NCBI GenBank assembly: GCA_900768815.1
Contig: CAAGEE010000018.1
Span: 67,138 to 131,137 of the forward strand
Length of the DNA stretch: 64,000 bases
Direction of reading: 5' to 3'
Origin: Bacilli bacterium
GTDB lineage: Bacteria; Bacillota_I; Bacilli_A; RF39; UBA660
Below the pieces are notes generated by a model. The model ran no database searches, was not told where the DNA came from, and was given only the letters and a program-made list of their open reading frames with translations. Below are positions 3,765 through 19,995 of this stretch, in pieces. A program made the position numbers and the translations under genes. Each line of letters starts with the position of its first letter. Within the stretch, counting starts at the first letter, position 1.

Positions 3765-4469
3765 ATGATGATGAATAATGGTGTTGAAGTAGAAGCTCAA
3801 AAAGTATATAAGCGAAAGTTATTTATAAAAGTAGTTAAAATAGCATTTCTATTACTACTTATTCTGATATCAATTATTTATTTATTTTTGTATATAGTCT
3901 ATGCTGGTGGTAGATTTACTGTTTCTCTTGATAAGAATATGTCTAATAGAAAAAACGTGTTTTTATCGGAAAATGGTAGTCTAAAAAATAAGGCTAGAGA
4001 GCTCTCGGCAGATACTATCGAATATATGGATAATATTTCCATTAAATGGTTACCAGATAATATCGATAAAGAGAAAACTGGTGCTCATAATGGGGATAAT
4101 TACATTGCCTATACTTTCTATGTAATTAATTCTGGAAAGGAAAAAGTAAACTATTGGTATGAGATTGACATAGATGATACTATTAAGAATGTTGATGAGG
4201 CCATTAGAATAATGATTTATCGTAATGGGGAAGCAACTGTTTATGCTAAAAAAAGTAAAGAAACTGCAAAAGCTGAACCAAATACGAAAAAGTTTGTTTC
4301 TTCAAAAATTGCTGTTTTGGAACAACGTAAGAATTTTAAACCTAATAGTAAAGATCGTTATACTGTAGTTGTGTGGATTGAAGGTGATGACCCTGAATGT
4401 AAGAATGATTTACTCGGTGGAGAAATTAAGTTACATATGGATTTCACTGAAGAACATGTTGACAAATGA
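3765..4469 (+). CDS. membrane-anchored TasA/camelysin-like paralog (SipW-cognate-type N-terminus)
   Basis: Basic N-region, one hydrophobic helix, then YAGGRF. The C-terminal motif WIEGDDPECKNDLLGGEIKLHMDF is shared with the next gene (YMWVEGQDVDCEDNASGGAIAYNLQF). RBS aggtga. Confidence 0.6.
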   Translation: MMMNNGVEVEAQKVYKRKLFIKVVKIAFLLLLILISIIYLFLYIVYAGGRFTVSLDKNMSNRKNVFLSENGSLKNKARELSADTIEYMDNISIKWLPDNIDKEKTGAHNGDNYIAYTFYVINSGKEKVNYWYEIDIDDTIKNVDEAIRIMIYRNGEATVYAKKSKETAKAEPNTKKFVSSKIAVLEQRKNFKPNSKDRYTVVVWIEGDDPECKNDLLGGEIKLHMDFTEEHVDK

Positions 4470-4486
4470 TTAAGGAGTGAAGAGGA

Positions 4487-5494
4487 ATGGAAAAGAAAAA
4501 TTCTAAAAGAAAAAGAAAAAGTAAAAAAATATTTATAGCAATATTAATGATTTTATTTACTGGTGTTATTTTAACTGCTAGTACTTATGCATGGTTTACT
4601 GCTAATAAGACAGTTACAGTTAGTCAAATTGATGTTAACGTTACTACTTCTGAAGGTTTGCAAATTTCAACAGATGCTGTTAATTGGAAAACTATAATTT
4701 CAAATGATGATATTACTGGTGCTAATTATCCAGGTGTTACTAACCAATTACCTAGTCAAACGGCTAGTATTAAACCAACATCTACAGTAGGTGATATTGA
4801 TACTGCTACTGGATTTATGAAAATGTTTGTTGGTAGTGTAACAACTAATGGTACTGGTGCTTATATTTTAACAACTACACAAAGTACAGAAACTAATTCA
4901 ACTACTTCTGGTGACTTCGTAGTATTTGATTTATATTTCCAAACTAACGTTGCTTCAACTATTTATTTAACAGCTAACTCAAACGTTCAAGCTTCTGGAA
5001 ATGCTACTGGTATTCAAAATGCTGCTCGTGTTGGTTTTGTAATTCAAGGTAATGCTGCTGCTGGTACTGATGCTACTACAGTTAGGGCATTAAAGAATGA
5101 TGGTACAGTAAAACCTGTTATTTGGGAACCAAATTTTGATGTTCATACAGCTGCTGCTGTTAAACATGCATCAGACGTTTACAATATAGTTACTTCTCAA
5201 GCTGGTGGTTCTAAAATTCCATATGTTGGTGTACAAGCTGATATTGCTGAGGGTGCTAATATAGCATTAAATTCAACTGATGCTACTTACTTTAAATCTA
5301 TTACCCCAGATATATATAGTGTTAATGCTGGTATACCTGCTGATAAATATGCACAAGCATTTGCTTTACAAGCTGGTATTACAAAAGTAAGAGTTTATAT
5401 GTGGGTTGAAGGACAAGACGTTGATTGTGAAGATAATGCTTCTGGTGGAGCTATTGCTTATAACTTACAATTCAGTACTTTAGATAAGGCATAA
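4487..5494 (+). CDS. secreted TasA/CalY/camelysin-family protein with SipW-cognate signal peptide; candidate major fiber subunit
   Basis: Signal peptide KRKRKSKK-IFIAILMILFTGVILTASTYAWFTANKT matches the SipW-cognate class (hydrophobic core then AYAxF). Mature part is T/A/G/V-rich and almost Cys-free. Strong RBS ggagtgaagagga. A strong terminator follows directly. Confidence 0.7.
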   Translation: MEKKNSKRKRKSKKIFIAILMILFTGVILTASTYAWFTANKTVTVSQIDVNVTTSEGLQISTDAVNWKTIISNDDITGANYPGVTNQLPSQTASIKPTSTVGDIDTATGFMKMFVGSVTTNGTGAYILTTTQSTETNSTTSGDFVVFDLYFQTNVASTIYLTANSNVQASGNATGIQNAARVGFVIQGNAAAGTDATTVRALKNDGTVKPVIWEPNFDVHTAAAVKHASDVYNIVTSQAGGSKIPYVGVQADIAEGANIALNSTDATYFKSITPDIYSVNAGIPADKYAQAFALQAGITKVRVYMWVEGQDVDCEDNASGGAIAYNLQFSTLDKA

Positions 5495-5555: not shown

Positions 5556-5687
5556 ATGGAGAAAAAGGAAGTTAAAATTGAGGAACTTAGCAATGATGAT
5601 TTAGTTAAACTATATCAAGATATACTTCAACATATTAAATTCTTAAATGATAGTATTATAAATGAAAGTGATGATAATAATGGGTAA
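5556..5687 (+). CDS. small hypothetical ORF (43 aa)
   Basis: RBS agagggtgaag then ATG at 5556. The 5505 start in the ORF track lies inside the terminator hairpin. Overlaps the start of the next gene. Confidence 0.2.
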   Translation: MEKKEVKIEELSNDDLVKLYQDILQHIKFLNDSIINESDDNNG

Positions 5688-7329
5688 TACAGTAATTGAT
5701 AAAGAAATTTCTATTAATAGTGAACATATAAATACATTTAAATTAGAACTTGAATCTGGTACTAAAAAAATGAAGGAGAAATTTCATAAAAGTGCTGTTA
5801 AAGAGAGAAATGAATATGTAGAAGAACAAATAAAGAAGTTTGATAAATATCAAGTAGAAGTATATAGATTGTTAAAATTACGAGTAAATAGTTTATTACC
5901 TAGTGATAAGAGTAATCATTATGATTCTTTAAAGAAAAATATTGAAAAAGAAAAACAAATAATAGTATTTAATAATAGTGATTATAGTATTGACTTTAAA
6001 CTTGGAATATTTAAGTTAATTAGTAGTATTGATATTAATGATGATGTTTCACTAAATACTATTAATAATACTTTTTTAAATATTATAAAAATATTTGAGG
6101 ATGCATCTATTAAACTTACTATTAGTGATTTTACTTATTCTATGTTTACTGAAAAGTATATGCATGTTTTTCTTGATAATATAGAGAAAAATAATAGATT
6201 TGAAGAAGTTATGAAGAAATGTTTTGATAGTATATACTGGGAATGTCCAGATATTATTAAACATTTAAAACTTAATTTTTGGAGTTTATTAGAGAAGTAT
6301 GAAGAAAAGTTAAAGATTTATACAGATACTGTTAGTTATCAATTGTTACAAAAAACTGGATATGATAAGAATAGTTTGATTGATAAGTATTTGGGTAATG
6401 TTAATAAGTATAATCTAGAAGTTTCTAGGGATGAGTTTTATAATTTAGATAGTTTTTTAAGTAAGAAAAAGAATGTTCTTGATTATTTAGATGATTCTGC
6501 TACTAGGGTTAAGAATCTTGATCAGTTTGTTATAGATGGTGAATTTAAAGATATAGAGGATAGTTCTAAGTTTTATGATAATATGGTTGAACTTGCACAT
6601 ACTTTAGGCGTTTTAAAACTATATTATCGATATGAATTTATTATTAAAGATATACAAGATAAATATAGTAAAAAGGATGCTAATAAAAGTGTTTTTTCTA
6701 ATAAATTAAAAGAGGTTAATACTGAAGAAGGCAAGCGTAAGAAGATATATAATGATTATTTAAAAGCTTGTGGTAAAAATTTATTTCACAAAGTTAATGA
6801 AGAGAAAATTAAAAGTAATAAGTTAGCAATTAATGAAGAAATATTAAAACTAGATACTTTATATAATGAATTACATGATTTAGAAATAGTAGAGTTAATT
6901 AATAAGAAAGTTAATAGTACTGATAGTTTATATGATTTATTTAGTTTAAGTTATGAGTCATACTATTATTTAGAGAAGATGTTTAATGAACATTTTAAAG
7001 ATAGTGATGATTATTCTTTTGAAGAAGAACTTAATAAGTATTTTGATTTTATATATAGTCCTTATAATGATTTTTTAAAGAAGATTAATGGTTTTTCTAT
7101 GGTAGATGTTTCTAGTGTTATTACTGATAAATATAGATTATTAGGTATTAATGTTACAAATGATAATATTAGTGTTGACAACTTAGATAGTTTTATGGAT
7201 TCTGTAAATTATGTTAAGTTTATTGATGATATTTTAAAGGGAGATTTATCATTTGATGATATTAATGTTATTGTTAAATTTAGGGAATTTGAGCCTATAG
7301 AATTACCAGATGATGATGAAATTATTTGA
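5662..7329 (+). CDS. hypothetical cytoplasmic Lys/Asn/Asp-rich protein (555 aa)
   Basis: Long uninterrupted ORF in an AT-rich genome. No TM helix and no recognised motif. Composition is similar to the 22242 gene. Confidence 0.6.
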   Translation: MKVMIIMGNTVIDKEISINSEHINTFKLELESGTKKMKEKFHKSAVKERNEYVEEQIKKFDKYQVEVYRLLKLRVNSLLPSDKSNHYDSLKKNIEKEKQIIVFNNSDYSIDFKLGIFKLISSIDINDDVSLNTINNTFLNIIKIFEDASIKLTISDFTYSMFTEKYMHVFLDNIEKNNRFEEVMKKCFDSIYWECPDIIKHLKLNFWSLLEKYEEKLKIYTDTVSYQLLQKTGYDKNSLIDKYLGNVNKYNLEVSRDEFYNLDSFLSKKKNVLDYLDDSATRVKNLDQFVIDGEFKDIEDSSKFYDNMVELAHTLGVLKLYYRYEFIIKDIQDKYSKKDANKSVFSNKLKEVNTEEGKRKKIYNDYLKACGKNLFHKVNEEKIKSNKLAINEEILKLDTLYNELHDLEIVELINKKVNSTDSLYDLFSLSYESYYYLEKMFNEHFKDSDDYSFEEELNKYFDFIYSPYNDFLKKINGFSMVDVSSVITDKYRLLGINVTNDNISVDNLDSFMDSVNYVKFIDDILKGDLSFDDINVIVKFREFEPIELPDDDEII

Positions 7330-7402: not shown

Positions 7403-7816
7403 ATGAGTGCTAGTAATGGTAATGATTTTAAAATTACAAAAGATAGTCAGGTTGTTAATATGGTCGATGTTAACACTATATATGGTGAAAATGGTGAATT
7501 TAGAAGTTGTGTTGATACTATTAGTAATGTTATTATTCCAGAACTTGAGAGATTAGCTGATAGTAATGTTATTCAATATGGTAATGTTGGTACTAGACCA
7601 ATGTTCAATAGATTAATAGACGATCTTAATGGTTTAGTTAAAATGCTTGATAATTTTACTGATGATAGAGTTACAGATTTTACAGAATTAAAGGCTAGGG
7701 AAGAGGCTGAATTACGAAGACTTAGGGAATATCTTGCAAGACTTAAGCGTCGAGCTAATGGTCCTACTCATACTGTAAATACTCCTATTATGGAGGTGAA
7801 AATAAATGAAAGTTAA
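7403..7816 (+). CDS. hypothetical protein (137 aa)
   Basis: RBS ggaggtg 8 nt upstream. The C-terminal Arg-rich helix (ELRRLREYLARLKRR) is not typical of the local composition. Overlaps the next gene by 11 nt. Confidence 0.55.
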   Translation: MSASNGNDFKITKDSQVVNMVDVNTIYGENGEFRSCVDTISNVIIPELERLADSNVIQYGNVGTRPMFNRLIDDLNGLVKMLDNFTDDRVTDFTELKAREEAELRRLREYLARLKRRANGPTHTVNTPIMEVKINES

Positions 7817-9245
7817 TACTTTAATGACTGATGGTGGAAATACTGCAGAAGACACTTTATATTCTACATCGTCTGATATAACTAATTTACAGCCTCTCAG
7901 TAGTCGGGTTGAAGAATCTTGGAAAAATGGTAACACTTTTAATTACCTTGATCCCACTAATGGTGGAACAAGCAATAGTACTACAACCGTTGGAGTAAAT
8001 AATAATAATAATAGTAATAATAGTAATAATAGTAATAATAGTAATAATAGTAACACTTCTACCAATCCTGCTAAAACGACTCTTTCTAGTGTTTCCTCTA
8101 ATTCATATGGAGATAGTTTATATATGGATGAGAGAGCAGTTGATGAGTCTATTGAAATTATTAATGAACTTAGTCATAAGTTTTATGAGGTTTTTTCTGA
8201 TTTATTGTTAGTTGAAGATTCTCTACGAAAAAAGGGAGAAGCTTCTGGATGGTGGTCTGCTTCTTCTAACTTTGCTCCGGATCTTTTTTATAATCATAAG
8301 TTTATTACTTTAGCTGATACAAACAATACAGAATGCCCAGCTAATAAATTACTTAGTATTTATCATGGTGATGAGGGTGTTAGTAATTTCTTTAAACAGC
8401 CTTCATTTAATGGATTAATATCTTCTTTAGAAGAAATTAAGCAAGCTATTCTTAATTATTCTAATGGGGTTGATACAGATAACGCTCTTAGTATTTTAAG
8501 GGCTTGGATTGGACCTAGTTGTAATCTTCCAGCAAAAATTTCTTTTGGTTCTGGCGGAAATACTGGAATTGTTAGTTCTAATGTTAATCCTGTAACTGCT
8601 CCTCCTATTTCTAGTACTGGAATTGGAAATAAGCCTAGTTCTAATATTATGGATAGTGCAGTTATTGATTTTGATAAGGATGATGGTGCTGATAATATTA
8701 AGGTAAAAGATAGTGCTACTGATGATATTACGAATGTTTCTTCAGATAAGCTAATTAAAGACTCGTCTTCGGTTGCTATTCCTGGTGTTGCTTCTATTAT
8801 TGGTAGCAGTACTAGAAATGGTAGTCTTGCGGGAGCTGTAGGCGTTGGAGCTGGTATTTTAGGATTAAATGGAGATGCTCCTTTAGAAATGTTAGATACT
8901 AATGCAGACGAGATAGATGGTAGTGATATGGCTGGTAGTGTTAGTGATGCAATTAGTGATTTTATTACACCAGATGTTGGAATTGCTAAGGGTAAAGTTG
9001 TAAAGTCATCTACTGGTGCTCCGGCTATTGCGGCTACACTTGCGGGAGTTGGTGCTTTGTCAGCAGGTGCTATAGGTGGTAAAATCTATATGGATAAGAA
9101 GAAAAACGAAGATGACGACGATGATGATGATATGGTTAGTTATGATGATGATGACTTTTTTGATAGAGAAGAGGAGAATGAAGAGGAACCTATTGATACT
9201 TCAATTGTAGACTTTAAAAATGAAATATTAAACGATAATTTATAA
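7806..9245 (+). CDS. Asn/Ser-repeat protein with C-terminal TM anchor and poly-Asp tail
   Basis: RBS ggaggtg. (NNS)n tract encoded by (AATAGT)n. No N-terminal signal peptide. C-terminal helix AIAATLAGVGALSAGAIGG followed by KKKNEDDDDDDD. Terminator downstream. Confidence 0.6.
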   Translation: MKVNTLMTDGGNTAEDTLYSTSSDITNLQPLSSRVEESWKNGNTFNYLDPTNGGTSNSTTTVGVNNNNNSNNSNNSNNSNNSNTSTNPAKTTLSSVSSNSYGDSLYMDERAVDESIEIINELSHKFYEVFSDLLLVEDSLRKKGEASGWWSASSNFAPDLFYNHKFITLADTNNTECPANKLLSIYHGDEGVSNFFKQPSFNGLISSLEEIKQAILNYSNGVDTDNALSILRAWIGPSCNLPAKISFGSGGNTGIVSSNVNPVTAPPISSTGIGNKPSSNIMDSAVIDFDKDDGADNIKVKDSATDDITNVSSDKLIKDSSSVAIPGVASIIGSSTRNGSLAGAVGVGAGILGLNGDAPLEMLDTNADEIDGSDMAGSVSDAISDFITPDVGIAKGKVVKSSTGAPAIAATLAGVGALSAGAIGGKIYMDKKKNEDDDDDDDMVSYDDDDFFDREEENEEEPIDTSIVDFKNEILNDNL

Positions 9246-9270
9246 GAGCTACTTAGGTAGCTTTTTTCTT
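9246..9270 (+). terminator. rho-independent terminator
   Basis: Hairpin agctacttaggtagct followed by T6. Confidence 0.6.
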
Positions 9271-9343: not shown

Positions 9344-10597
9344 ATGACTTACTTAAAGAAGATATTTAAGTCTATTGCTTGTTGTTTTCTAGCGTTGTTA
9401 GTAAGTTTATGTTTATATACATTTATAGTTACTGATATTATGAAGAAGGATTACGTTAATGTATTTGGGTATACTTATTTTGTAGTTAAGACTGGTAGTA
9501 TGTCTGGAACACTTGAAGTAGACGATGTAATTATAGTTAAAATTACTAAAGATACTAAAATTAATGATATTATTACTTATGTTAATGATAATGGGGAAAT
9601 TATTACTCATAGACTTGTTAGAAAGTCAGGTAGCAAATTGATTGCTCAAGGTGATGTTAATAATGTCGAAGATAATCCTATTACAAAGGATCAATTAATT
9701 GGAACAGTAGCTTTAGTTATTTCACCTAGTTTTGTTTTAAAGACGGTGGCTACTTTTTTAATACTTTTTATCTTTTTGGCACTAATTAATTTTGATAGTA
9801 TTTTTCAAAAATATATTATGAAAGATAAAAAAATTGTTACTAATACTAAGGGTAGTGTACCAGAGGAGATTTTTGCAACTAGTGAACATAAAAAAGAAGA
9901 AAAATCTGGTCTTACTGTTACTATTCCTTTAGATGAGATTGCTAATATACAATTAGCTCAAGAAAAAGAAGCTGATAGTGAAGAAGAAATTGAAATATTA
10001 GAAGTGGAAGATGTTATAGATATAGATAATAATAATATAGTTACAAAAGAGAGAAATACAGCAAGAGAGAAAGAAAGAGAATTATTAGAGCAGGTATCTA
10101 ATTTACTTAGAATTAAGAATAATAGTTTAACTACTACTAGAATCAATAAAAAATGGTTAGTTAAATATCAATACGTATATAAACTTGCCCTTATATTGAT
10201 GGTAGGGGATATGATTGAATTAGAAGAAGCAATTAATCATCCAACATTTAAAGAAATATATGACTATGATTTAGATAGGGCTGGGTTATATGAAAATCTT
10301 CGTAATAAGATTTATGAGATGCCTATATATGTATTTTTAAGGATACTTACTTTTGCTATTTTATATAATGATGAAGAGTTTTTTGATGGTATTTATAAGA
10401 TTATGAAATATAAGATACAGATAGATAAAAATGGTTATTTTAGGGAAGTTAAAAAGAATGATACTTATAGTAGAAAACAACTTAAATCTTTAATTTCTTT
10501 TATGCAAAAAATATCTATTAAATTTGATAATAAAAATGTATTTGAACTTGAAAGGATTGAGAAATACGTAAAATTAAAAAGCTATGTAAATAATTGA
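9344..10597 (+). CDS. sipW: SipW-type (archaeal/ER-type) signal peptidase I with about 230-aa C-terminal extension
   Basis: N-terminal TM, then VVKTGSMSGTLEVDDVIIVK (catalytic Ser in GSM) and IITHRLVRK (His box). A second TM (VATFLILFIFLAL) is followed by an acidic coiled region. Extended -10 (tgctataat) upstream. Confidence 0.75.
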   Translation: MTYLKKIFKSIACCFLALLVSLCLYTFIVTDIMKKDYVNVFGYTYFVVKTGSMSGTLEVDDVIIVKITKDTKINDIITYVNDNGEIITHRLVRKSGSKLIAQGDVNNVEDNPITKDQLIGTVALVISPSFVLKTVATFLILFIFLALINFDSIFQKYIMKDKKIVTNTKGSVPEEIFATSEHKKEEKSGLTVTIPLDEIANIQLAQEKEADSEEEIEILEVEDVIDIDNNNIVTKERNTAREKERELLEQVSNLLRIKNNSLTTTRINKKWLVKYQYVYKLALILMVGDMIELEEAINHPTFKEIYDYDLDRAGLYENLRNKIYEMPIYVFLRILTFAILYNDEEFFDGIYKIMKYKIQIDKNGYFREVKKNDTYSRKQLKSLISFMQKISIKFDNKNVFELERIEKYVKLKSYVNN

Positions 10598-13500
10598 TGG
10601 AGGGATTTACTTTGGCAGAGAGTAGAATTAATAAAAACAAGTTAATTTTAAATATCTTTTTAGCTTTAATTATTTTAATAGCTTGTTTTGGTGTAATTAA
10701 TTTATTTACTGCTAAAGATAGTTATAGTAATGAGTTAGAAGAGAAATGGGATGGAGTTAGTGTTGCTTCGTCTTTTTCTCATGGTAATGGAACTAGAGAT
10801 AATCCTTATACTATAAATAATGGAGCAGAATTTGCATACTTTAAACAGTTAATTGAAGGAGATAATTATACTTTATATAATAATAAATATTATAAACTTG
10901 GTAATAATATTAATTTAGATAATCATGAATTTATTGGTATTGGATTTCAGGATAGAATATTTAAGGGATACTTTGATGGTAATGGATATAGTATTAAGAA
11001 TGCTAAAATTACTAGTGGAGTTATATATAATGGATTTAGTTATTATGGATTATTTAATAGTTTAGAGAGTGCTAGTATAGTTAATTTGAATATTGATAAT
11101 ATTGTTGTTAGTCCAGTTAAAGAAAGTGTTTCTTATAAAGTTGGTACTTTAGCAGGAGATGTCAATGGTAATAGTAATATTAGTAATATTAGTGTTATAA
11201 ATACTAAGTTTGATTTAACTAATGTATTATCTGATAATATTACTGTTATAGGTGGTGTTGTTGGTAATATAGGTGGAGATAGTAAGTTTTATAATGTTTA
11301 TGTTAATATTACCTTTGATACTACTAATATTTTAACAGTAGGTAAAGTTGCTCATACGATTGCTTGTGATAGTAATAATATAATTACTAATATTAGTACT
11401 AATTCATTATTTATAGATAACGAATCTAATTATATTAATTCTACTGGTAAAAATACTAATCAATTTATATATAGTGATTCTAATTATGTAGATAGTTCTA
11501 CTAAGACGATGATTAGTACTAAGGATTTGTTAGGAATACTTAATAAAGGATATGACTATGAGTTTGGTTGGGAGAGTTTTGGCAATACTTTAATAATTAA
11601 GAGAGATGAGGTTGTACCTGATAATATTGGTGTTAGTGCTTTTTCTTTTTCAATTAATGAACCTATTGTTTTACATGATTCTGGAATAGTAGGAGATACA
11701 GTTTATGTTAATGACTTAACTAGTGATTATAATAATTATATGGGACTTAATTATACTGATTTTTCTAATACTGGTACTTTACCTACTGGAGAGAGTTTGG
11801 AACTTTACTCTGATAATAATCTAGTTAAAGTTTATACTATGTATGATGGTGTTGGTGTTGCTAATGAAGACTATGTTGGGTATATTGGAATTGATAATGA
11901 TGAAAGACAAAGTAAGTTAGTTTATTATAAGTATTATCCTGTTGTTGATGGATATGTTACTTTTGAACTTATAGATAATCCATTTGGTAATAGACCTAAT
12001 GATATGGCTTTTAATGGATGGGTTACTGATTATAGAGGGGCTTTTGTTTATTTAGATAGGGATACTTATGTTAGATATGTTAAGATTCCTGTTACTGATG
12101 TCAATCAAACTATATCTATTGAGTTTAGAGCTAGCTGGATTAATGCTACTACAGCAGAAGTTACTACTGATAGTTGGAATAATGCTTTTAATCAAATAAA
12201 TAGTGCTGGTATGTTAGAACTTGAAACAAAAAGACCTATTTACGAAGATAACCCTGATATGAGAGATTATTATATTACTGGTACTGTTAATAGACGTCGT
12301 TATTATCCTAATGGAGCTTATAATAGTTATGGTAATGATATATCTGGTAATTATTGTAATACTTATGGTGGATGTACTTATTATTATCATCCTACTAGTA
12401 GTGTTTATGATGAAAATCAAACATACTATGAATTAGTCAATGGTAGAATGAGTGTTTATCAAAAAAGGATAATCGGTTATGAAAATACTGATGTTCTACC
12501 AGAGGGTGCAAGTGTTGCTTCTTTATTTAGATTAGTTAATGTAGGGTATAGACAGTCTATTAATGGATATTATGATAATACTGGTAATATTGTATCTGGT
12601 ACTTGTAATACTTATGGTGGTTGTAATTATTATGAGTATATACAGTACTATGATAATAATGGTAATGAGAGTATTGTTGATGCTGATAGTACTTATTATT
12701 ACTTAGTTACTAGAGATACTAATATTGTTGTTTTAAGATATAATATTTCAGCTAGTATTAATAATAATAAACCATTTACTTTAACTAGTGTTAATAATGG
12801 GATTGATTATAGAAATAATCATAATTTTAATATTAGGAATAGTTATATTAGTGCTAAAAGTGATTTAAGAATTGAGTTTATTACTCTTACTGTTGGAAGT
12901 GCTGCTAGTAATTCTGATCCAACTAGTAATAGTAATCAATATGGTTATATTTATGGTAATTGGAATAATTTAAAGATTGGTAGAGGATTAAGAAAGAGGG
13001 GCAACTATATATCTGCTTATAGTGTTTTAGGTGGATCTAATGGTTCTACTGGTAGTTCTGGTTCTACTGTTGATTATCGTTTGATAGTTGAATCAGGTTA
13101 CTATAATACTTTAATTGTTACTAATGGTAATGTTGGTGACTATAGTTCTGGTGGCTGGTGGGGTGAATATGGTTCACGCATATATGTTGATGGTTTAGCT
13201 ATTTATGGCAGTGATTATGATAGAGTTAATAATAATAACGGTGAATTAACTGTTTATTATTGTGCTTCTGGCAGTTGGGGTGGTGCTGTTTATGGCTTAA
13301 ATGAGACTACTAGTATTGCAATACATACAAATATAAAATCTGGAGAGTTTGGTACTAGTAAGTATGATTATTCTACTGGTGTTTATATTGGCGGTAGAGG
13401 TGGTGGAACACACTATGCAGCAAGAGAAGCTACTATTGAAGGTGGCTGGATTTATAACTTGATAGGTGGACCATTAACTGCTAGTAATAGAGAAAATCGA

Positions 13501-16500
13501 AATGATACTTATGCTAATATAAAAGGCGGAAGCATTGATTTAGTTATTGGTGGAGCTGGTGCTTCGGCTACTTATGGTAATAGAATTATTAATTTAACTG
13601 GTGGTACTATTAATTATGCTGTTTTTGGAGGTTCTAATGGATATACTGGTAGTGATACTGGTAATTATCGTGGAACTTTAGAGGGTAGTACATTTGTATA
13701 TGTTGGTGGTAATGCTGTTGTTGGTGATGATTATTTAATAGCAGCTAATTCTAATAGATTTGGAGTTGAATCTGGTAGTGTATTTGGAATTGGTAATGGT
13801 AATAGTGATTCATCTCAGATTGGTACTGCTAATAACTCTAATATTTTAATTAATGGTAATGCTACTATTAAACGTAATGTTTATGGTGGTGGTAATTATG
13901 GTGCAGTTGGTATTAATGGAAATTCTACTACTAAAACTACTATTAAAGTACTAGGAGGTAATATAGTTGGTGCTTTATATGGTGGTGGTAATAATAATGG
14001 TTCTGGTAGTACTTCTGTTACTTCAACAATAGATATTACTGTTCTTGGTGGTGAGATTGGTAATGTATATGGTGGTTCTCGTAATAAAGGAACTGTATAT
14101 GGTAATACTAATGTAAAAATTATTGCTGGAGTTATAGTTAATGATGTATATGGTGGTGGAGAAGGTGGTTATACTAGTTCTAATTCTCCTGGTACATTCG
14201 TTACACAAAATGTTAATGTTGTGATAGGTGATAATTCTAGTGAAGTAGTTCCTACTATTAATGGTAATGTATATGGTGGTAGTGCTTATGGTACTGTTAA
14301 TGGAAGTAGTAATAGTACTAATGTTTCTAATTATGATACTAATGTTACTGTAAATAAAGGTACTGTTGTTAAATCTGTCTTTGGTGGTGGTAAAGGTAAT
14401 AATCAATTTACGCCATATGTACTTGGTGATGTTACTGTTAATATTAATGGTGGTAACATTGGTAATGTATTTGGTGGAAATGACGCTAAAGGTAGCCCTA
14501 ATGGAAATGATGTAGTTTATTTGAATGATGGTATTATTGGTAATGCTTTTGGTGGTGGTAATAATACTGGTCAGGCAACTACTAATATTTATTTACAGGG
14601 TTCTGTTGTTAATAATTTGTTTGGTGGTTCTAATAGTTCTGGTACTGTTGGTACTACTAATGTTTATGTAACTTCTGGTACTGTTGGTAATATATATGGT
14701 GGTAATAATATTGGTGGTGACACTGATACTAATAATGTTACAGTTACTGGTGGAAATATTACTGGTGATATATATGGTGGAGGAAGTTTAGCTAACTCTA
14801 TTACTTCAATAGTTACAGTTACAGGTGTTAAGGCAAATGATGTATATGGTGGTGGTGAAAAAGCTAGTGTTACTACTACTAGTGTTGTTGCTACTTCGGC
14901 TACTTTAAATAAAGTGTTTGGAGGATTAAACTTTTCTGGAGATGTAGATAATAGTAATGTTTTAATTAATTCTGGTGTTATTGGTGGAATATATGGTGGT
15001 AATAATCAAGGTGGTACTACTAAGATAACAGAAGTAACTATTAAAGATGGTACTATTAATAATGTCTTTGGTGGAGGAGATAATGCTTTATCAACTACTT
15101 CTAATGTTAATATAGATGGTGGAGTTATTACTAATGTATTTGGTGGTGGTAATGAAGCTGGTCTTACTGATTCTAATATTAATATTAGTAATGGCACTAT
15201 TACTAATGTCTTTGGGGGATCTAATAAATCTGGTAATTTGGATGAGTCTAATGTTAATGTTGGTAGTAGTAAAGCTCTTGATTTGGTTGATGTTAGTATT
15301 AGTTCTTCACCAGTTAATGCTACTTGGCAATCTTCTGATTATGATACGTATGTTGATATTACAGTTACTCTTAAGAATTTGACTAATACAGATATTTCTG
15401 ATTGGGAGATTGATCTTAATATGCCGAAAGATTCAGTTCTCTATTCAAACTGGTCTAGTTCTGATTTCACCATTACTAATGGTGTTGGAAAGGTTACTTC
15501 GGCTAATAGATATGATTCTAATAATCCTAATACTTTGAGGGCTAATGGTGGTACTTATTCATTTACTTATGCTATTTTAACTAATACTGTTGCGACTAAT
15601 TACAGTATGTCTAGTAAGGTAGTTAAGCCAAATGCTATTCCTGCTGTTTCTAATGTTGCAATTGGTTCTTTATATGGTGGTAATAATGAAGGTGGAATTA
15701 CTTCTGTTACTAATGTTTTGGTTAACTCTGGTACCATTAATTCTTTATATGGAGGTGGTAATCAAGCTGTAGTTGGTGAAGCCAATGTTACTTGTAAAAC
15801 TGCTAATATTGGTGTTTTGTATGGTGGTGGTAATGCTGCTGGTGTTACTAATGATACTCATGTTGATATTGATAATGCTAATATTACTCATAATATTTAT
15901 GGTGGTGGTAATGAAGGTATTGTTGATGGAAGCACACATGTATTTGTAACGGATAGTAGAGTTTTAGGTAGTATGTATGCTGGTGGTAATGGTTCTACGG
16001 CTATAGTTAGAAAAAATACTAATATTACAGTTGATGGAGCTACTGTTGTTGGAAGTGAGAGTACTGTTGCTCCGGCAGCTGGTTCTGTCTTTGGTGGTGG
16101 TAACGCCGCTGCTACTGGATATGAAAATGCAGGTAACTCTGTTGCTATTGTTAATATTGTTGGTGCAACTGTATATGGTAATGTATATGGTGGAGCTAAT
16201 ACTTCAGTTGTTTATGGTAGTACTAAAACTAATATTGGTACGGCTGCTGTTAACAATGATGGTTTAGTTGAAGGAGATATTATTATTAGGGGAACTGTCT
16301 TTGGAGGAGGAGAAGCTAATGCAGCTGGCTCTGAAGTTTATGACTGGAACTTTATCTCTGTTACTTCAGCTATTAATATAAGTATTGATGGTACAGGTTA
16401 TACAACTAATAATCATAAATTTTTAATGAATGGCTCAATATTTGGCTCTGGAAATGCTTCATCTTCATCAGGAGTTTCACAAATTACAATAAAAAATCTT

Positions 16501-19113
16501 GGTACTATTACAGCACCTAGTAAAAATATTTCTATTCAGAGAACTGATAAATTAACTATTGATAGTAGTTGTATTGAGTTATCTGGTATTAAAGATAGAA
16601 CTAATGAGTATTCTGATATTCCTTATTCATTTAACCAGATTAAAGCTTTAGTTATTAAAAATGGTACAACTTTATTATTAAAAAAGAATGCTAATATGCT
16701 TGAGTCTTTCTATTCTGGAGTGGATATTGATGGAGCTTTGGTACCGGCTGAGGTTACTATTGATGATAATGGTAATACTACTAAGAATGTTGATAATCGT
16801 CTTTATATGGCTCCTAATAATAACTTAAATATTACTACTAATCAAACAGCAACGGCTTATGGTAAAGTTACTGGTATGACTTTCTTTGGTATGTATAACT
16901 CATATGCTGCTGGTTCTATTTCCTATGGTGTTTATGATCCGTCTGTTAAAAACGGAGATAGTGCTGATGCAGGTGATGTTATTGTTGGTGGTAGTTATGT
17001 TCTTGGTTTACATAGTTTAAATCATGATATTACAAAAGATGGATTTTATTCTAATTATTTGAATGACGATTATACTTTGGTTAGTACTAAGTATATTGAT
17101 CCTACTGAAGTTGGTGAAACTGGTTATCGTTGGATTATTGGTTTGGATGCTATTAACTATACAATTAATTTGAATGCATCTAAGTACTCTTCTTTAGGTA
17201 CGGCGAACTTATCTTTAATGGATTTTGCTTCAGGCGATACAATATTTAATGTAGTTGGATTTAATAGTGAAGGTTTATCTAGTGGTGTTGAATTAATTGA
17301 TCCAAACTTAGTTCCTAAGCTTTCAACAACTGCAGAAGAAGCTAATAGAAAGTTAGGCTTGGCGGTAAAAGCTGAAACTCGTGAGTGGACTGGTCATGGT
17401 AAAACTGTTCTTTTAAGTGAATCTGGTGGTAAGTATACTGGTACTACTTCATATAAGACTGATAGTCAAGCAATTGTACCATCTTTGATGTTTTACTTGT
17501 ATCATGCTAAAAATATTACCCTAAATGAAGATTTAGGAACAGCAATTGTAAGTTTACAAGTTTTAATTCCAATAAATGCTATTGAGTATAAAGTCCAATT
17601 GGTTACAGTTACTGTTAATATTACAGCAAGTAATTATCAAGATGAAGATGCATATGATGCTAGTATTACTTATGATAAAAAGTATGAGATGCCTTCGGCT
17701 ACTTCTGTTAATATAACTAATCAGAGTCAGTTTACAACGTATTATTCATTATTTGCATATGCTGATAGTTATGAGAAGTTCTATGGTATTAATGATAATT
17801 ATTATCATGCTTTAGTTACAAATTATGCTTTACCAGTTGGTACACAAATTACAATGCTTGATTATGGTGTTTCACAGGAACAACCTGAATATTACTATTA
17901 CACTGTTACACAAGCTGAGTATGATAGGGCAGTTAGACAACTAGCTCAAGATAAAGAAATTACTTATAAACTTTCTAATTTTATAAAAATGGGTAGTGTA
18001 AGTAATGATAATAAATATAATGACTCAGTTAATAATCATAAATATTATACGGATGAATATGGTCGAATAGTTGAAGAATTTATCTTTATATTTGATTTTA
18101 AAGAAACTACTACGACTGGTACACATATTGATAATTCAATTTTATTTGAACTTAAAAATAATGAAGATAGAACTTTAATTTCTGTACTTGGTATTCGTCA
18201 AGGACTTATGGAATATAGTTTGTATGATAGTTCTAACGTTGTACTTAATCAAACCGTTGGTCCAAAGAGTGATTATATGTACTATGATATTCCATATGAA
18301 GTTTCTTATTCTACATCTGTTGCTTATGATCAGACTGCTAATCGTGAAGCGATTATTAATACTAATTATGAGTCTAGTAGTATGGGACTTAATGTTACTA
18401 TAATAGATAGTTCTGGTACACAAGTTAGTTCGAGCTTGTTATCGGGTACTAATATAGTTATTGACAATATTGCATATTTTGCGGATAGTGATGGTGTATA
18501 TAGAATAAAACTGGCAGACAAGGTATCGAACTTGAAAAAGAATATTACAATTTATAGTGATTCATTATTACCTGCTGGTACTTATACATTAAGATTTAGT
18601 TTATTTGCATCAGCTGATGGTAGACATAATTCACATGCCTTGGAGTCAGCTGAGTATGAAAAAGTAATTACCTTAGTAGGTAGTGATAATAGTATAAAAG
18701 TAAATACCAATGATAAGACAAAATTAGTATTTGGAGAAACTGGACTTAATGCAGCATCACTTAACTATAATACTTATGTGGTTTCTTATAATACAGTTTT
18801 AACTAATCCAAATGTTAGATTAAGTGTTTATAAAAGGAATATTGATAATAAAGATACGACAGTTTATACGGAAGTTGATTTTAATAGTTTATTTACAAAT
18901 GAGCTTGCTTCACCTAATGATTCACTTTACTTAAATCAATCTGTTTATGAAAAGATGTTAAAAGTATCTCCAGGTATTAATAATACAATGCATTTTGATT
19001 TAGCAGATAATTTAATTAGTGGTACATATAAGTTGGTATTTAAACTATATGATAACAATCAATTAGTAGATGAAGAATATAAATATGTAATTGTTAATAA
19101 AAAAGTTCAGTAA
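10597..19113 (+). CDS. giant (about 2839 aa) membrane-anchored parallel beta-helix repeat surface protein (Pmp-like GG-x-N repeats)
   Basis: Continuous 8.5-kb ORF. N-terminal TM (LILNIFLALIILIACFGVINLF). Dozens of tandem repeats of about 20-25 aa of the form (V/I/L)(Y/F)GG(G/S/N)N...N(V/I), for example TNVFGGGNEAGLTDSNINISNGTITNVFGGSNKSGNL. Start overlaps the sipW stop by 1 nt. Confidence 0.8.
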   Translation: MEGFTLAESRINKNKLILNIFLALIILIACFGVINLFTAKDSYSNELEEKWDGVSVASSFSHGNGTRDNPYTINNGAEFAYFKQLIEGDNYTLYNNKYYKLGNNINLDNHEFIGIGFQDRIFKGYFDGNGYSIKNAKITSGVIYNGFSYYGLFNSLESASIVNLNIDNIVVSPVKESVSYKVGTLAGDVNGNSNISNISVINTKFDLTNVLSDNITVIGGVVGNIGGDSKFYNVYVNITFDTTNILTVGKVAHTIACDSNNIITNISTNSLFIDNESNYINSTGKNTNQFIYSDSNYVDSSTKTMISTKDLLGILNKGYDYEFGWESFGNTLIIKRDEVVPDNIGVSAFSFSINEPIVLHDSGIVGDTVYVNDLTSDYNNYMGLNYTDFSNTGTLPTGESLELYSDNNLVKVYTMYDGVGVANEDYVGYIGIDNDERQSKLVYYKYYPVVDGYVTFELIDNPFGNRPNDMAFNGWVTDYRGAFVYLDRDTYVRYVKIPVTDVNQTISIEFRASWINATTAEVTTDSWNNAFNQINSAGMLELETKRPIYEDNPDMRDYYITGTVNRRRYYPNGAYNSYGNDISGNYCNTYGGCTYYYHPTSSVYDENQTYYELVNGRMSVYQKRIIGYENTDVLPEGASVASLFRLVNVGYRQSINGYYDNTGNIVSGTCNTYGGCNYYEYIQYYDNNGNESIVDADSTYYYLVTRDTNIVVLRYNISASINNNKPFTLTSVNNGIDYRNNHNFNIRNSYISAKSDLRIEFITLTVGSAASNSDPTSNSNQYGYIYGNWNNLKIGRGLRKRGNYISAYSVLGGSNGSTGSSGSTVDYRLIVESGYYNTLIVTNGNVGDYSSGGWWGEYGSRIYVDGLAIYGSDYDRVNNNNGELTVYYCASGSWGGAVYGLNETTSIAIHTNIKSGEFGTSKYDYSTGVYIGGRGGGTHYAAREATIEGGWIYNLIGGPLTASNRENRNDTYANIKGGSIDLVIGGAGASATYGNRIINLTGGTINYAVFGGSNGYTGSDTGNYRGTLEGSTFVYVGGNAVVGDDYLIAANSNRFGVESGSVFGIGNGNSDSSQIGTANNSNILINGNATIKRNVYGGGNYGAVGINGNSTTKTTIKVLGGNIVGALYGGGNNNGSGSTSVTSTIDITVLGGEIGNVYGGSRNKGTVYGNTNVKIIAGVIVNDVYGGGEGGYTSSNSPGTFVTQNVNVVIGDNSSEVVPTINGNVYGGSAYGTVNGSSNSTNVSNYDTNVTVNKGTVVKSVFGGGKGNNQFTPYVLGDVTVNINGGNIGNVFGGNDAKGSPNGNDVVYLNDGIIGNAFGGGNNTGQATTNIYLQGSVVNNLFGGSNSSGTVGTTNVYVTSGTVGNIYGGNNIGGDTDTNNVTVTGGNITGDIYGGGSLANSITSIVTVTGVKANDVYGGGEKASVTTTSVVATSATLNKVFGGLNFSGDVDNSNVLINSGVIGGIYGGNNQGGTTKITEVTIKDGTINNVFGGGDNALSTTSNVNIDGGVITNVFGGGNEAGLTDSNINISNGTITNVFGGSNKSGNLDESNVNVGSSKALDLVDVSISSSPVNATWQSSDYDTYVDITVTLKNLTNTDISDWEIDLNMPKDSVLYSNWSSSDFTITNGVGKVTSANRYDSNNPNTLRANGGTYSFTYAILTNTVATNYSMSSKVVKPNAIPAVSNVAIGSLYGGNNEGGITSVTNVLVNSGTINSLYGGGNQAVVGEANVTCKTANIGVLYGGGNAAGVTNDTHVDIDNANITHNIYGGGNEGIVDGSTHVFVTDSRVLGSMYAGGNGSTAIVRKNTNITVDGATVVGSESTVAPAAGSVFGGGNAAATGYENAGNSVAIVNIVGATVYGNVYGGANTSVVYGSTKTNIGTAAVNNDGLVEGDIIIRGTVFGGGEANAAGSEVYDWNFISVTSAINISIDGTGYTTNNHKFLMNGSIFGSGNASSSSGVSQITIKNLGTITAPSKNISIQRTDKLTIDSSCIELSGIKDRTNEYSDIPYSFNQIKALVIKNGTTLLLKKNANMLESFYSGVDIDGALVPAEVTIDDNGNTTKNVDNRLYMAPNNNLNITTNQTATAYGKVTGMTFFGMYNSYAAGSISYGVYDPSVKNGDSADAGDVIVGGSYVLGLHSLNHDITKDGFYSNYLNDDYTLVSTKYIDPTEVGETGYRWIIGLDAINYTINLNASKYSSLGTANLSLMDFASGDTIFNVVGFNSEGLSSGVELIDPNLVPKLSTTAEEANRKLGLAVKAETREWTGHGKTVLLSESGGKYTGTTSYKTDSQAIVPSLMFYLYHAKNITLNEDLGTAIVSLQVLIPINAIEYKVQLVTVTVNITASNYQDEDAYDASITYDKKYEMPSATSVNITNQSQFTTYYSLFAYADSYEKFYGINDNYYHALVTNYALPVGTQITMLDYGVSQEQPEYYYYTVTQAEYDRAVRQLAQDKEITYKLSNFIKMGSVSNDNKYNDSVNNHKYYTDEYGRIVEEFIFIFDFKETTTTGTHIDNSILFELKNNEDRTLISVLGIRQGLMEYSLYDSSNVVLNQTVGPKSDYMYYDIPYEVSYSTSVAYDQTANREAIINTNYESSSMGLNVTIIDSSGTQVSSSLLSGTNIVIDNIAYFADSDGVYRIKLADKVSNLKKNITIYSDSLLPAGTYTLRFSLFASADGRHNSHALESAEYEKVITLVGSDNSIKVNTNDKTKLVFGETGLNAASLNYNTYVVSYNTVLTNPNVRLSVYKRNIDNKDTTVYTEVDFNSLFTNELASPNDSLYLNQSVYEKMLKVSPGINNTMHFDLADNLISGTYKLVFKLYDNNQLVDEEYKYVIVNKKVQ

Positions 19114-19164
19114 GTTAACTTGAAATTAGACTTTGTATGTGATAAAATTTAAGAAGGTGGTTGT

Positions 19165-19923
19165 ATGTTAAAAAAGATACTAAAATGGTTATGGGAATTT
19201 TTAGAGATTCTAATTATAATTTATGTAATTTTTATTACTTCTTGTATTTTATGTCGTAATAAATTTGGTTATACTCAGTTTGGGGATATGACTTTTGTTA
19301 CTGTTAGTGAGAATAATGAGAAGTTCTTTATGAATAATAAGGCTGGAGATTTATTAATTATTAAGAATCAACAGATGAATTTAGATGTTAATGATTTAAT
19401 ATATTATTATGTTACTGTTGATGAGAAATATATTGTTAGAACTGGGGTAATTGATTCTAAGTCTCAAGATGATTATGCTGCTTTATATGTTTTAAGGGAT
19501 GATGAAGGTAGTAGTATTGCTAGTAACAGAGTAATTGGTAAGTATGTTAAGACTTATCATGGAAAAGGAGCGATACTTGATATACTTGAGAGTAGAGTTG
19601 GGTTCTTATTCTTAGTTTTATTACCTATATTAATAGTATTCATTTATCAAATTTATCAATTAGTTATTGTTGCTAAATACGAAGTTGTTGAAGATGATGA
19701 TGAAGAAGAGGAAGAAAAACCTCGTACTAAGAAAATAACTAAGAAGAGAGAAACAGTTAAAGCAGTGGAGAAAAAAGAAGAAATTATTAAAAAAGAACTT
19801 CCTAAAGAGGAAAAACATGAAGTAAAAGTAGAGGAAGTTATAGAGAAGAAGAGTCCTGTTAAAGAAGAAAAGCAGGAGAATAAGGAATCTATTAAGTCAG
19901 CTGATGATATAGAATTGTTATAG
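19165..19923 (+). CDS. SipW-like pseudo-peptidase (catalytic Ser and His lost) with acidic/Lys-rich tail
   Basis: Same architecture as the other SipW paralogs (N-terminal TM, beta-sandwich region, second TM, charged tail). It reads FGDMTFVTV where they have TGSM(S/E) and YIVRTGVI where they have ITHR(L/I). RBS gaaggtgg. Confidence 0.6.
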   Translation: MLKKILKWLWEFLEILIIIYVIFITSCILCRNKFGYTQFGDMTFVTVSENNEKFFMNNKAGDLLIIKNQQMNLDVNDLIYYYVTVDEKYIVRTGVIDSKSQDDYAALYVLRDDEGSSIASNRVIGKYVKTYHGKGAILDILESRVGFLFLVLLPILIVFIYQIYQLVIVAKYEVVEDDDEEEEEKPRTKKITKKRETVKAVEKKEEIIKKELPKEEKHEVKVEEVIEKKSPVKEEKQENKESIKSADDIELL

Positions 19924-19948
19924 ACGGAGTTATGACTCCGTTTTTTGT
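19924..19948 (+). terminator. rho-independent terminator
   Basis: Hairpin acggagttatgactccgt followed by T6. Confidence 0.65.
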
Positions 19949-19995
19949 TTACTTAATTTATTAATTTTGGTATAATTCATACTAGGAGAATAGTT

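Follow-up and report, generated by a model that had tools for sequence, protein, structure and literature searches.

Inactive signal peptidase paralogs are, to our knowledge, known only from the P-type branch of these enzymes, namely SipA in the streptococcal pilus islets and SpsA in the staphylococci. Here we describe an open reading frame (ORF) of the endoplasmic reticulum (ER)-type branch, represented by SipW and SEC11, in which all three catalytic residues have been lost. It lies in a stretch of 64,000 nucleotides from a Bacilli bacterium (contig CAAGEE010000018.1 of assembly GCA_900768815.1, positions 67,138 to 131,137), hereafter the window, where it occupies positions 19165..19923 of the forward strand, starts with ATG and encodes a protein of 252 residues that we refer to as pseudo-SipW. 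SpsA of Staphylococcus aureus, an inactive type I signal peptidase homologue encoded beside the active SpsB, is comparable to pseudo-SipW in that arrangement, but SpsA is a P-type protein that is not known to lie in a fibre cluster, and what it does is still unclear.

In SipA of Streptococcus pyogenes the catalytic Ser and Lys have given way to Asp and Gly, the peptide-binding cleft is kept and the protein is essential for pilus polymerisation (PMC4049620). Like pseudo-SipW, it is a signal peptidase homologue without catalytic residues, and it is among the structural matches of the latter. SipA is encoded in a surface-fibre cluster and is proposed to bind a surface component (PMC4049620); the pseudo-SipW cluster encodes a giant protein and exported proteins with TasA-like motifs, which at most hint at a fibre. 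The two also differ in lineage and build, SipA being a P-type protein (S26A, Ser-Lys) with one transmembrane (TM) helix that belongs with sortase-built pili, whereas pseudo-SipW is of the ER type (S26B, Ser-His-Asp), has two TM helices and a conserved cytoplasmic tail motif, and sits with active SipWs, the giant protein and TasA-like genes. By analogy of presumed function, pseudo-SipW most resembles the SipA-type pseudo-signal-peptidases, from outside the SipA lineage.

The described sipW-tasA operons (tapA-sipW-tasA in Bacillus subtilis and sipW-bsaA-bsaB-bsaC in Clostridium perfringens) combine an active SipW with small exported subunits whose signal peptides have an aromatic-rich end, and a similar set is seen around pseudo-SipW, where two active SipW paralogs with Ser, His and Asp and small exported proteins with candidate TasA-type signal motifs are encoded. 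In some related loci (L003, 6496..9918, and also L004 and L005) a VWA protein of 1140-1164 residues is encoded between the giant gene and pseudo-SipW, and it recalls BsaC of C. perfringens (PMC11580942). The described operons differ in having no inactive SipW, no protein of ~2800 residues and no McrB-like AAA+/DUF2357 pair, and the accessory roles in them are filled by the unrelated TapA and CapP. In the C. perfringens BsaA model SipW cleavage follows subunit docking (PMC11580942), a scheme that leaves room for a paralog that holds without cutting. Full-text searches of the literature recovered no description of an inactive or pseudo SipW.

Homology to SipW/SEC11 and loss of the catalytic triad

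The reference set of active enzymes (A4) consisted of 11 SipW/SEC11 sequences, taken from syntenic loci, from three distant matches and from stretches of human SEC11A/C. It was assembled in this way because a search for homologues of the window's short active SipW (25984..26829, + strand, 281 residues; TGSME, VTHR and NNKYED, with S55, H98 and D124, and the tail EEEEVI) gave no diverse set, the best 120 matches listed all being at least 88 % identical. The pseudo-SipW family was represented by an alignment and profile of 99 diverse relatives (A3), to which the column frequencies given below refer.

Curated models barely register the protein. The NCBIfam SipW model NF046067 covers it from end to end (residues 7-185) at 23.1 bits (E 4.6e-5), far under the cut-off of 190, and scans with curated models gave no match to TIGR02228 or to Pfam S24/S26. 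The short active SipW passes TIGR02228 (74 bits, cut-off 51.85) and aligns to human SEC11A/C with the GSMEP, HR and Asp box matched. Scanning of the 99 relatives revealed no Pfam model that covers the family, Peptidase_S24 being touched weakly by only three of them, and among PDB sequences the family profile met no relevant protein, the best being aIF1A at E 0.6. The link to SEC11 comes to light only via the active paralog, hhalign and a structure model. The A3 profile matches the short active paralog at 64 bits (E 1e-19) and, counting its orthologues as well, reaches 60-76 bits with E values of 1e-19 to 1e-23, while the hhalign comparison of A3 with A4 gives a probability of 99.8 % and an E of 4.4e-29 over 184 columns, from TM1 through TM2.

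The AlphaFold2 model built on A3 has a predicted local distance difference test score (pLDDT) above 93 for residues 1-170. It consists of a first TM helix (residues 2-29; 19168..19251, + strand), a beta-domain (37-131), a helix at 134-142, a second TM helix (144-172, GFLFLVLLPILIVFIYQIYQ; 19594..19680, + strand), also supported by column conservation, and a disordered, cytoplasmic Glu/Lys-rich tail (19681..19920, + strand) that ends in the conserved DDIELL (19903-19920). Its top PDB match in Foldseek is human SEC11A (7p2p_A; probability 1.0, E 3e-3, template modelling (TM) score 0.34/0.51, with 0.51 on the target). Also in the top five are LexA and S. pyogenes SipA, the latter (4n31_A) as a weaker match (E 1.8e-2, 86 columns). 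The alignments and the model identify ORF 19165..19923 as a true SipW/SEC11 homologue, of the S26B lineage by descent. It is homologous to B. subtilis SipW and SEC11 over the whole core, is predicted to have the same fold, shares with SipW the order TM1, ectodomain, TM2 and cytoplasmic tail, and is also encoded beside exported proteins with TasA-type signal motifs.

The SipW triad consists of Ser47, His87 and Asp106 (PMC8767453). Invariant columns of A4 are S55, M56, D64, H98, G117, D124 and G134, numbered as in the short paralog, and profile-sequence and profile-profile alignments agree in placing S55, H98 and D124 of the latter opposite N51, G94 and G115 of pseudo-SipW. The codons of N51 (19315..19317, + strand) and G94 (19444..19446, + strand) were located from both kinds of alignment and that of G115 (19507..19509, + strand) from the profile-profile alignment, in which the GDNN (GxNN) box of active SipW, carrying the triad Asp as GDNNxxxD, is deleted at this point. 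Pseudo-SipW further differs from SipW and SEC11 by an extra beta-hairpin (GYTQFG..T), the six residues GYTQFG being inserted ahead of the strand leading to the former Ser, and by a variable acidic loop in place of the Ser strand; it stays far under the curated cut-offs and lacks every catalytic feature of these enzymes.

The same substitutions extend beyond the window. Among the 99 relatives the Ser column holds Asn (26), Asp (18), Glu (9), a gap (9), Thr (8) and Ser in 6 % (6); the His column holds Gly (49), Asp (21), Ala (17), Ser (8), Asn (2), Glu (1) and a single His (1 %); and the Asp column holds Gly (19), Asn (19), Asp in 18 % (18) and Lys (16). The picture is the same in 48 distinct locus-derived copies of pseudo-SipW, and the Ser loop is deleted in P0176, P0187, P0208 and L049. 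In pseudo-SipW, then, Asn, Gly and Gly stand at the places of the catalytic Ser, His and Asp, and the loss is family-wide. Among the best 150 relatives listed (to E ~6e-11), only the lowest-ranked full-length ones, P0245, P0255 and P0260, carry SDSM...THR; judged from their sequences, these are true peptidases.

An earlier note, made from the letters alone, had described the gene as a SipW paralog without the catalytic Ser and His. This is borne out by profile-sequence and profile-profile alignments and by structure, and it extends to the triad Asp and to the whole family. Of the two replacements given in that note, YIVRTGVI for ITHR picks the right stretch (the His corresponds to G94, or to T93 in a plain MAFFT alignment), whereas FGDMTFVTV for TGSM is off register: TGSM aligns to E49-N50-N51-E52, immediately after the FGDMTFVTV string, and the Ser equivalent, ~10 residues beyond 'GDM', is N51 and not D41. 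On these alignments the resemblance of GDM to GSM is coincidental, and a three-sequence MAFFT alignment with GDM opposite GSM was rejected, since it disagrees with both profile alignments and with the pattern of strands in the model. The register error leaves the conclusion unchanged, because no alignment of pseudo-SipW, that with SipW and SEC11 included, has Ser or His at either catalytic position. The model is confident and SEC11A-like in fold, the Ser and His positions being seen as substituted in the profile alignments, and the second TM helix (144-172) and acidic/Lys tail that had been noted are indeed retained, in the model and in the profile-profile alignment.

Selection, spread and gene order of the family

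Nei-Gojobori comparison of the pseudo-SipW core with four orthologues of unsaturated synonymous divergence (dS) gave ratios of nonsynonymous to synonymous divergence (dN/dS) of 0.08-0.20, similar to the 0.05-0.15 of the long and short active paralogs and below those of the neighbouring small exported proteins. Searches with the core of 172 residues recovered 520 proteins from a database clustered at 90 % and, at 50 % identity, 454 representative clusters with E<=1e-3, of which 155 reach E<=1e-10. On these data pseudo-SipW is an old and diverse family under purifying selection, and not a one-off degenerate copy or a recent accident. The closest genome relative is 98 % identical (Mycoplasma sp. 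CAG:877), and the others belong to metagenome-assembled genomes of uncultured Bacilli from the human gut. Metagenome loci, scanned with a 22-sequence family alignment, come from the human gut and, by their record names (e.g. a woodrat caecum co-assembly), also from other animal-gut samples.

Gene order was reconstructed in 55 loci by profile and iterative searches, ~35 of them being informative for the cluster, and in these pseudo-SipW is a fixed member of a conserved cluster of ~12 genes. The main order, kept down to ~40 % pseudo-SipW identity, runs from a long SipW (360-505 residues) through the giant protein (2600-2850), pseudo-SipW, exported proteins of ~203, 205 and 311 residues, a protein of 355 residues, an AAA+ protein of 511 residues, a DUF2357 protein and the short SipW to exported proteins of 261 and 210 residues, the last on the reverse strand. 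The long SipW precedes the giant gene in loci that reach far enough upstream, and the three small exported genes always follow pseudo-SipW in this type of cluster. A second architecture (L011, L054) has the giant gene, a 508/515-residue protein, pseudo-SipW, a small exported protein, an active SipW of 191 residues and further small exported proteins. In distant loci pseudo-SipW and an active SipW lie within one or two genes of each other, and where the giant gene is absent they adjoin (SipW of 419 residues and pseudo-SipW of 178 in L049/50; pseudo-SipW of 330 and SipW of 232 in L055). As the A3 profile barely recognises the long active SipW (1.7 bits, against 64 on the short one), the pseudo-enzyme probably arose from the short-SipW lineage.

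In the window, the long active SipW (9344..10597, + strand, 417 residues; TGSMS, ITHR and GDVNNVED in its N-terminal SipW domain) is followed by the giant protein (10594..19113, + strand, 2839 residues; N-terminal signal-anchor and Gly/Asn-rich repeats), which is directly upstream of pseudo-SipW in most loci. The three genes look like a single transcription unit with pseudo-SipW as its last member, because two terminator-like sites bracket them. The upstream boundary is a stem-loop at 9244..9265 (+ strand; 9-bp stem, T run) just 3' of the ORF 7806..9245, and the downstream one is an intrinsic-terminator-like stem-loop with a 9-bp stem and a T run at 19922..19943 (+ strand), overlapping the pseudo-SipW stop codon. 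The position assigned to the gene in the earlier note, directly after the giant gene and before a terminator, agrees with this stem-loop and with the stop of the 2839-residue ORF at 19113, from which 52 nt separate the pseudo-SipW start. A Shine-Dalgarno-like site read from the sequence, AAGAAGGTGG (19151..19160, + strand), stands 4 nt upstream of the ATG. The next gene is preceded by a promoter-like site, TTTACT-17-TATAAT with TG upstream (19948..19976, + strand), which is a consensus match only.

The ER-type (SipW/SEC11) branch has, on this evidence, a large pseudo-peptidase family of its own under purifying selection, which the Pfam and NCBIfam models miss and whose members, where they are annotated, appear as 'signal peptidase I' (one JGI record). 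Pseudo-SipW should not be annotated in this way, a point that corrects an over-count of active signal peptidases in reduced genomes. Pseudo-SipW breaks no wholly new ground, but its family is a clean and widespread one of pseudo-enzymes, as yet unannotated, that flags an uncharacterised surface-structure cluster. The cluster it marks, of ~12 genes, is widespread in never-cultured Bacilli of the human and herbivore gut, and the family offers a handle for finding such clusters.

Possible roles of a non-cleaving SipW paralog

Constraint on the pseudo-SipW family falls on the stretch where TM1 ends and on the segment next to the membrane (T25, L29, N32, G35, T37), on the beta-core (GDL, YYY, Y108, G125, G135), on the juxtamembrane helix and, as its most conserved block, on TM2 (LESxxGFLxxVLLPIxxxFIYQxY). 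The family signature LCRNKFGYTQFG stands directly after TM1, and N32 within it is 98 % conserved. TM2 is near-identical to that of the active SipWs P0255 and P0260 (GFLIVIVIPMLIFFIYQVYN in P0255 versus GFLFLVLLPILIVFIYQIYQ in pseudo-SipW), and is therefore read as inherited peptidase equipment. Also conserved are the last six residues, [DE][DN][IV]E[ILVF]L-COOH, placed after a disordered Glu/Lys linker whose length varies. Orthologues of the short active SipW end similarly, in EEEVI, DDIEIV or DDEII, and in the window such acidic-hydrophobic C-termini are found in pseudo-SipW (DDIELL, 19903..19920), in the short SipW (EEEEVI, 26815..26826) and in an ORF of 555 residues (5662..7329; DDDEII, 7309..7326). 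This common C-terminus is kept across orthologues (DVEFL, NIEIL, DDIEIV, EDIEII) and may be a shared docking peptide. Pseudo-SipW would thus appear to keep the parts that seat it in the membrane beside a signal peptide, together with a cytoplasmic docking peptide, and to have lost the chemistry.

Judged from these features and from the SipA analogy, pseudo-SipW most likely binds partner proteins at the membrane rather than cutting them. More specifically, it could be a non-cleaving receptor or adaptor for the giant or TasA-like precursors, SipA-like in role and derived from the ER type, a proposal for which we consider the case to stand about even. Pseudo-SipW would no longer cleave anything, and with the retained membrane parts, namely both TM helices and the membrane-proximal strands, it would serve as a receptor or holdase that takes cluster precursors by their signal-anchor and N-terminal region without cutting them, the first client being the co-transcribed giant protein. 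Precursors would be held at the membrane in an assembly-competent state, or shielded from premature cleavage by the active SipWs, and the conserved cytoplasmic motif would tie pseudo-SipW to a cytoplasmic partner that it has in common with the short active SipW. Besides SipA, the BsaA scheme and the peptidase-independent tail function of B. subtilis SipW (PMC8767453) lend plausibility to this proposal. The roles suggested earlier, in which the giant protein would have pseudo-SipW as a chaperone or scaffold, or the active SipWs would have it as a regulator, fit the conserved gene order and the SipA precedent (PMC4049620). The candidate clients among the small exported proteins have a signal-anchor followed by TYAWF, TYTAY, AYAWF, TYAKY or AYASY, a conserved motif seen by eye that resembles the TasA-type SipW signal peptide. 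The family may also serve as a natural separation-of-function variant for what these proteins do besides cutting, that is, signal-peptide recognition, membrane thinning and tail signalling.

Several observations weigh against this receptor proposal. The loop that replaces the Ser region is acidic and variable in length, so that the signal peptidase-like S1/S3 pocket may have been lost. The giant protein is absent upstream in L043, L046 and L049/50, and therefore cannot be the only partner of pseudo-SipW. Terminator-like sites are not enriched over shuffled sequence (4 versus 3.4 expected), and it is thus solely the placement of these sites that sets the operon boundaries. As to the TasA-like clients, ORF 4487..5494 reaches 15.3 bits on TIGR04088, the model of the SipW-cognate signal peptide, below the cut-off of 19. 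The model of the small exported protein of 203 residues (T203) has a pLDDT of 67, from a shallow alignment, and its top Foldseek match is the TasA fibre 8aur_A at an E of 5e-4 and a TM score of 0.23, the other matches being generic beta-sandwiches. Profile and sequence searches of the PDB with T203 and with ORF 4487..5494 returned nothing, and a family scan of the cluster proteins gave no match to Pfam Peptidase_M73. The label of a 'SipW/TasA-like fibre cluster' is on these motifs and models plausible, and short of proven.

A bolder form of the receptor proposal, which we regard as unlikely, would make pseudo-SipW the membrane base of a machine for a surface fibre or giant adhesin that has so far not been described. 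An uncleaved signal-anchor, belonging either to the giant protein or to the basal TasA-like subunit, would be gripped for good, and the structure would in this way be tethered with neither sortase nor attachment to the cell wall, while the acidic-hydrophobic peptide found in pseudo-SipW, in the short SipW and in ORF 5662..7329 would dock all three on a cytoplasmic partner, e.g. the McrB-like AAA+ protein. If true, a signal peptidase fold would serve as a structural anchor, and peptidase paralogs would be linked to NTPase-driven assembly in uncultured, Mollicutes-related gut Bacilli.

The main rival to a holdase is an accessory subunit of the active SipW, possible in our view but doubtful. Pseudo-SipW would here be a non-catalytic member of a heteromeric signal peptidase complex, in which its TM helices contact either the long or the short active SipW and it tunes the substrate choice, timing or stability of that enzyme. 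It would then correspond to the accessory subunits that the eukaryotic complex has, and would not bind precursors itself. Pseudo-SipW and an active SipW always occur in the same cluster and are direct neighbours in the loci without the giant gene (L049/50, L055). The most conserved parts, TM2 and the juxtamembrane helix, are typical interaction surfaces, and the C-terminal tail motif is similar in pseudo-SipW and the short SipW. However, bacterial SipW works alone on TasA and TapA (PMC4551309, PMC8767453), and the TM2 motif is also present in the active P0255 and P0260, from loci without a demonstrated pseudo partner, so it need not be a heterodimer interface.

The conserved C-terminal motif at the end of a length-variable disordered linker would also suit a protein that is mainly signalling or regulatory, with the cytoplasmic tail as its business end and the ectodomain as a sensor or relic. 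There is a precedent in B. subtilis SipW, for which PMC8767453, citing Terra et al. 2012, gives a peptidase-independent function in the cytoplasmic C-terminal 20 residues. We hold such a role to be quite unlikely, as the ectodomain core is conserved and under purifying selection, several complete family members are without the tail motif (L011 ends in ...IEDEDE) and family scans made no transcription factor evident in the conserved cluster.

A peptidase that has exchanged its catalytic residues for others is highly improbable. T37 (81 %), T43 (85 %, T+S), D62 and D77 (both ~76 %) are fairly well conserved in the ectodomain and could be considered as candidates, but D62 and D77 belong to structural GD motifs that active SipW keeps as well, some members have no loop at the Ser position and in the others its length differs, and the GDNN box is gone. 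The columns conserved above 90 % are only N32, L63, Y82, G125, G135, G146, F147 and P154, with no nucleophile or base among them, and since the ectodomain of the 99 relatives has no conserved His, Lys, Cys or Ser, a cryptic active site is very unlikely in this family. Finally, a decaying and functionless gene copy, for which the loss of all three catalytic residues might speak, is refuted by the selection and conservation data, the reading frame being intact in all complete copies seen, with the low dN/dS given above, hundreds of diverged full-length relatives, a strong Shine-Dalgarno-like site and an invariant position in the cluster.

Neighbouring genes of the cluster

The giant gene overlaps the stop of the long SipW with its start-codon region. 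Its product was not matched by any Pfam model at E<=0.1; it carries repeats of the (V/I)(F/Y)GGxN type, a signal-anchor without the TYAxF motif and a conserved C-terminus, ...YVIVKKK. The ~250 extra C-terminal residues of the long SipW had no match in the family scans, and their end, ELDKIERxVKIKSY, is conserved.

Upstream of the long SipW, the ORF 7806..9245 encodes a 479-residue protein in which a low-complexity region is rich in Asn and Ser, a hydrophobic segment is C-terminal and the tail is poly-Asp. The sortase-B QVPTGV sorting-signal model touches it below threshold (18.2 versus 21.35 bits); the family scans of the cluster proteins found no sortase, no search aimed at sortases having been made.

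Downstream of pseudo-SipW, three small exported proteins of 203, 205 and ~311-332 residues (19996..22181, + strand) have an N-terminal signal-anchor followed by a TYAxY-type motif. The conserved cluster genes at 22242..25982 (+ strand) encode the 355-residue protein, a membrane-anchored, McrB-like AAA+ protein of 511 residues and a DUF2357 protein of 374 residues. Within 23312..25982, the 511-residue protein has N-terminal TM segments and matches McrB of the PDB (E 2.7e-5) and the PADLOC candidate defence model PDC-M26A (E 1.3e-37), and the protein encoded 3' of it matches DUF2357 at E 7e-13. The McrBC-like pair is found inside the SipW/giant cluster in every full-length related locus, and for this reason it looks like a cluster component rather than an inserted defence island. 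In locus L012 (9805..11874), and in P0262-P0264, members of ~690-740 residues combine the pseudo-SipW core with a long C-terminal extension, and the fused gene of L012 is directly followed by an McrB-like AAA+ gene.

A further conserved member is the exported protein of 261 residues (26795..27580, + strand), with GVNAYAWF as its signal motif. At least seven small exported paralogs are encoded in the window, at 3765..5494, 19996..22181, 26795..27580 and, on the reverse strand, 28328..28960, and many of them have a C-terminal strand ending in ...xQ. The 210-residue protein of the reverse strand (28328..28960) also matches the FxLYD domain model at 25.3 bits, above its cut-off of 23.

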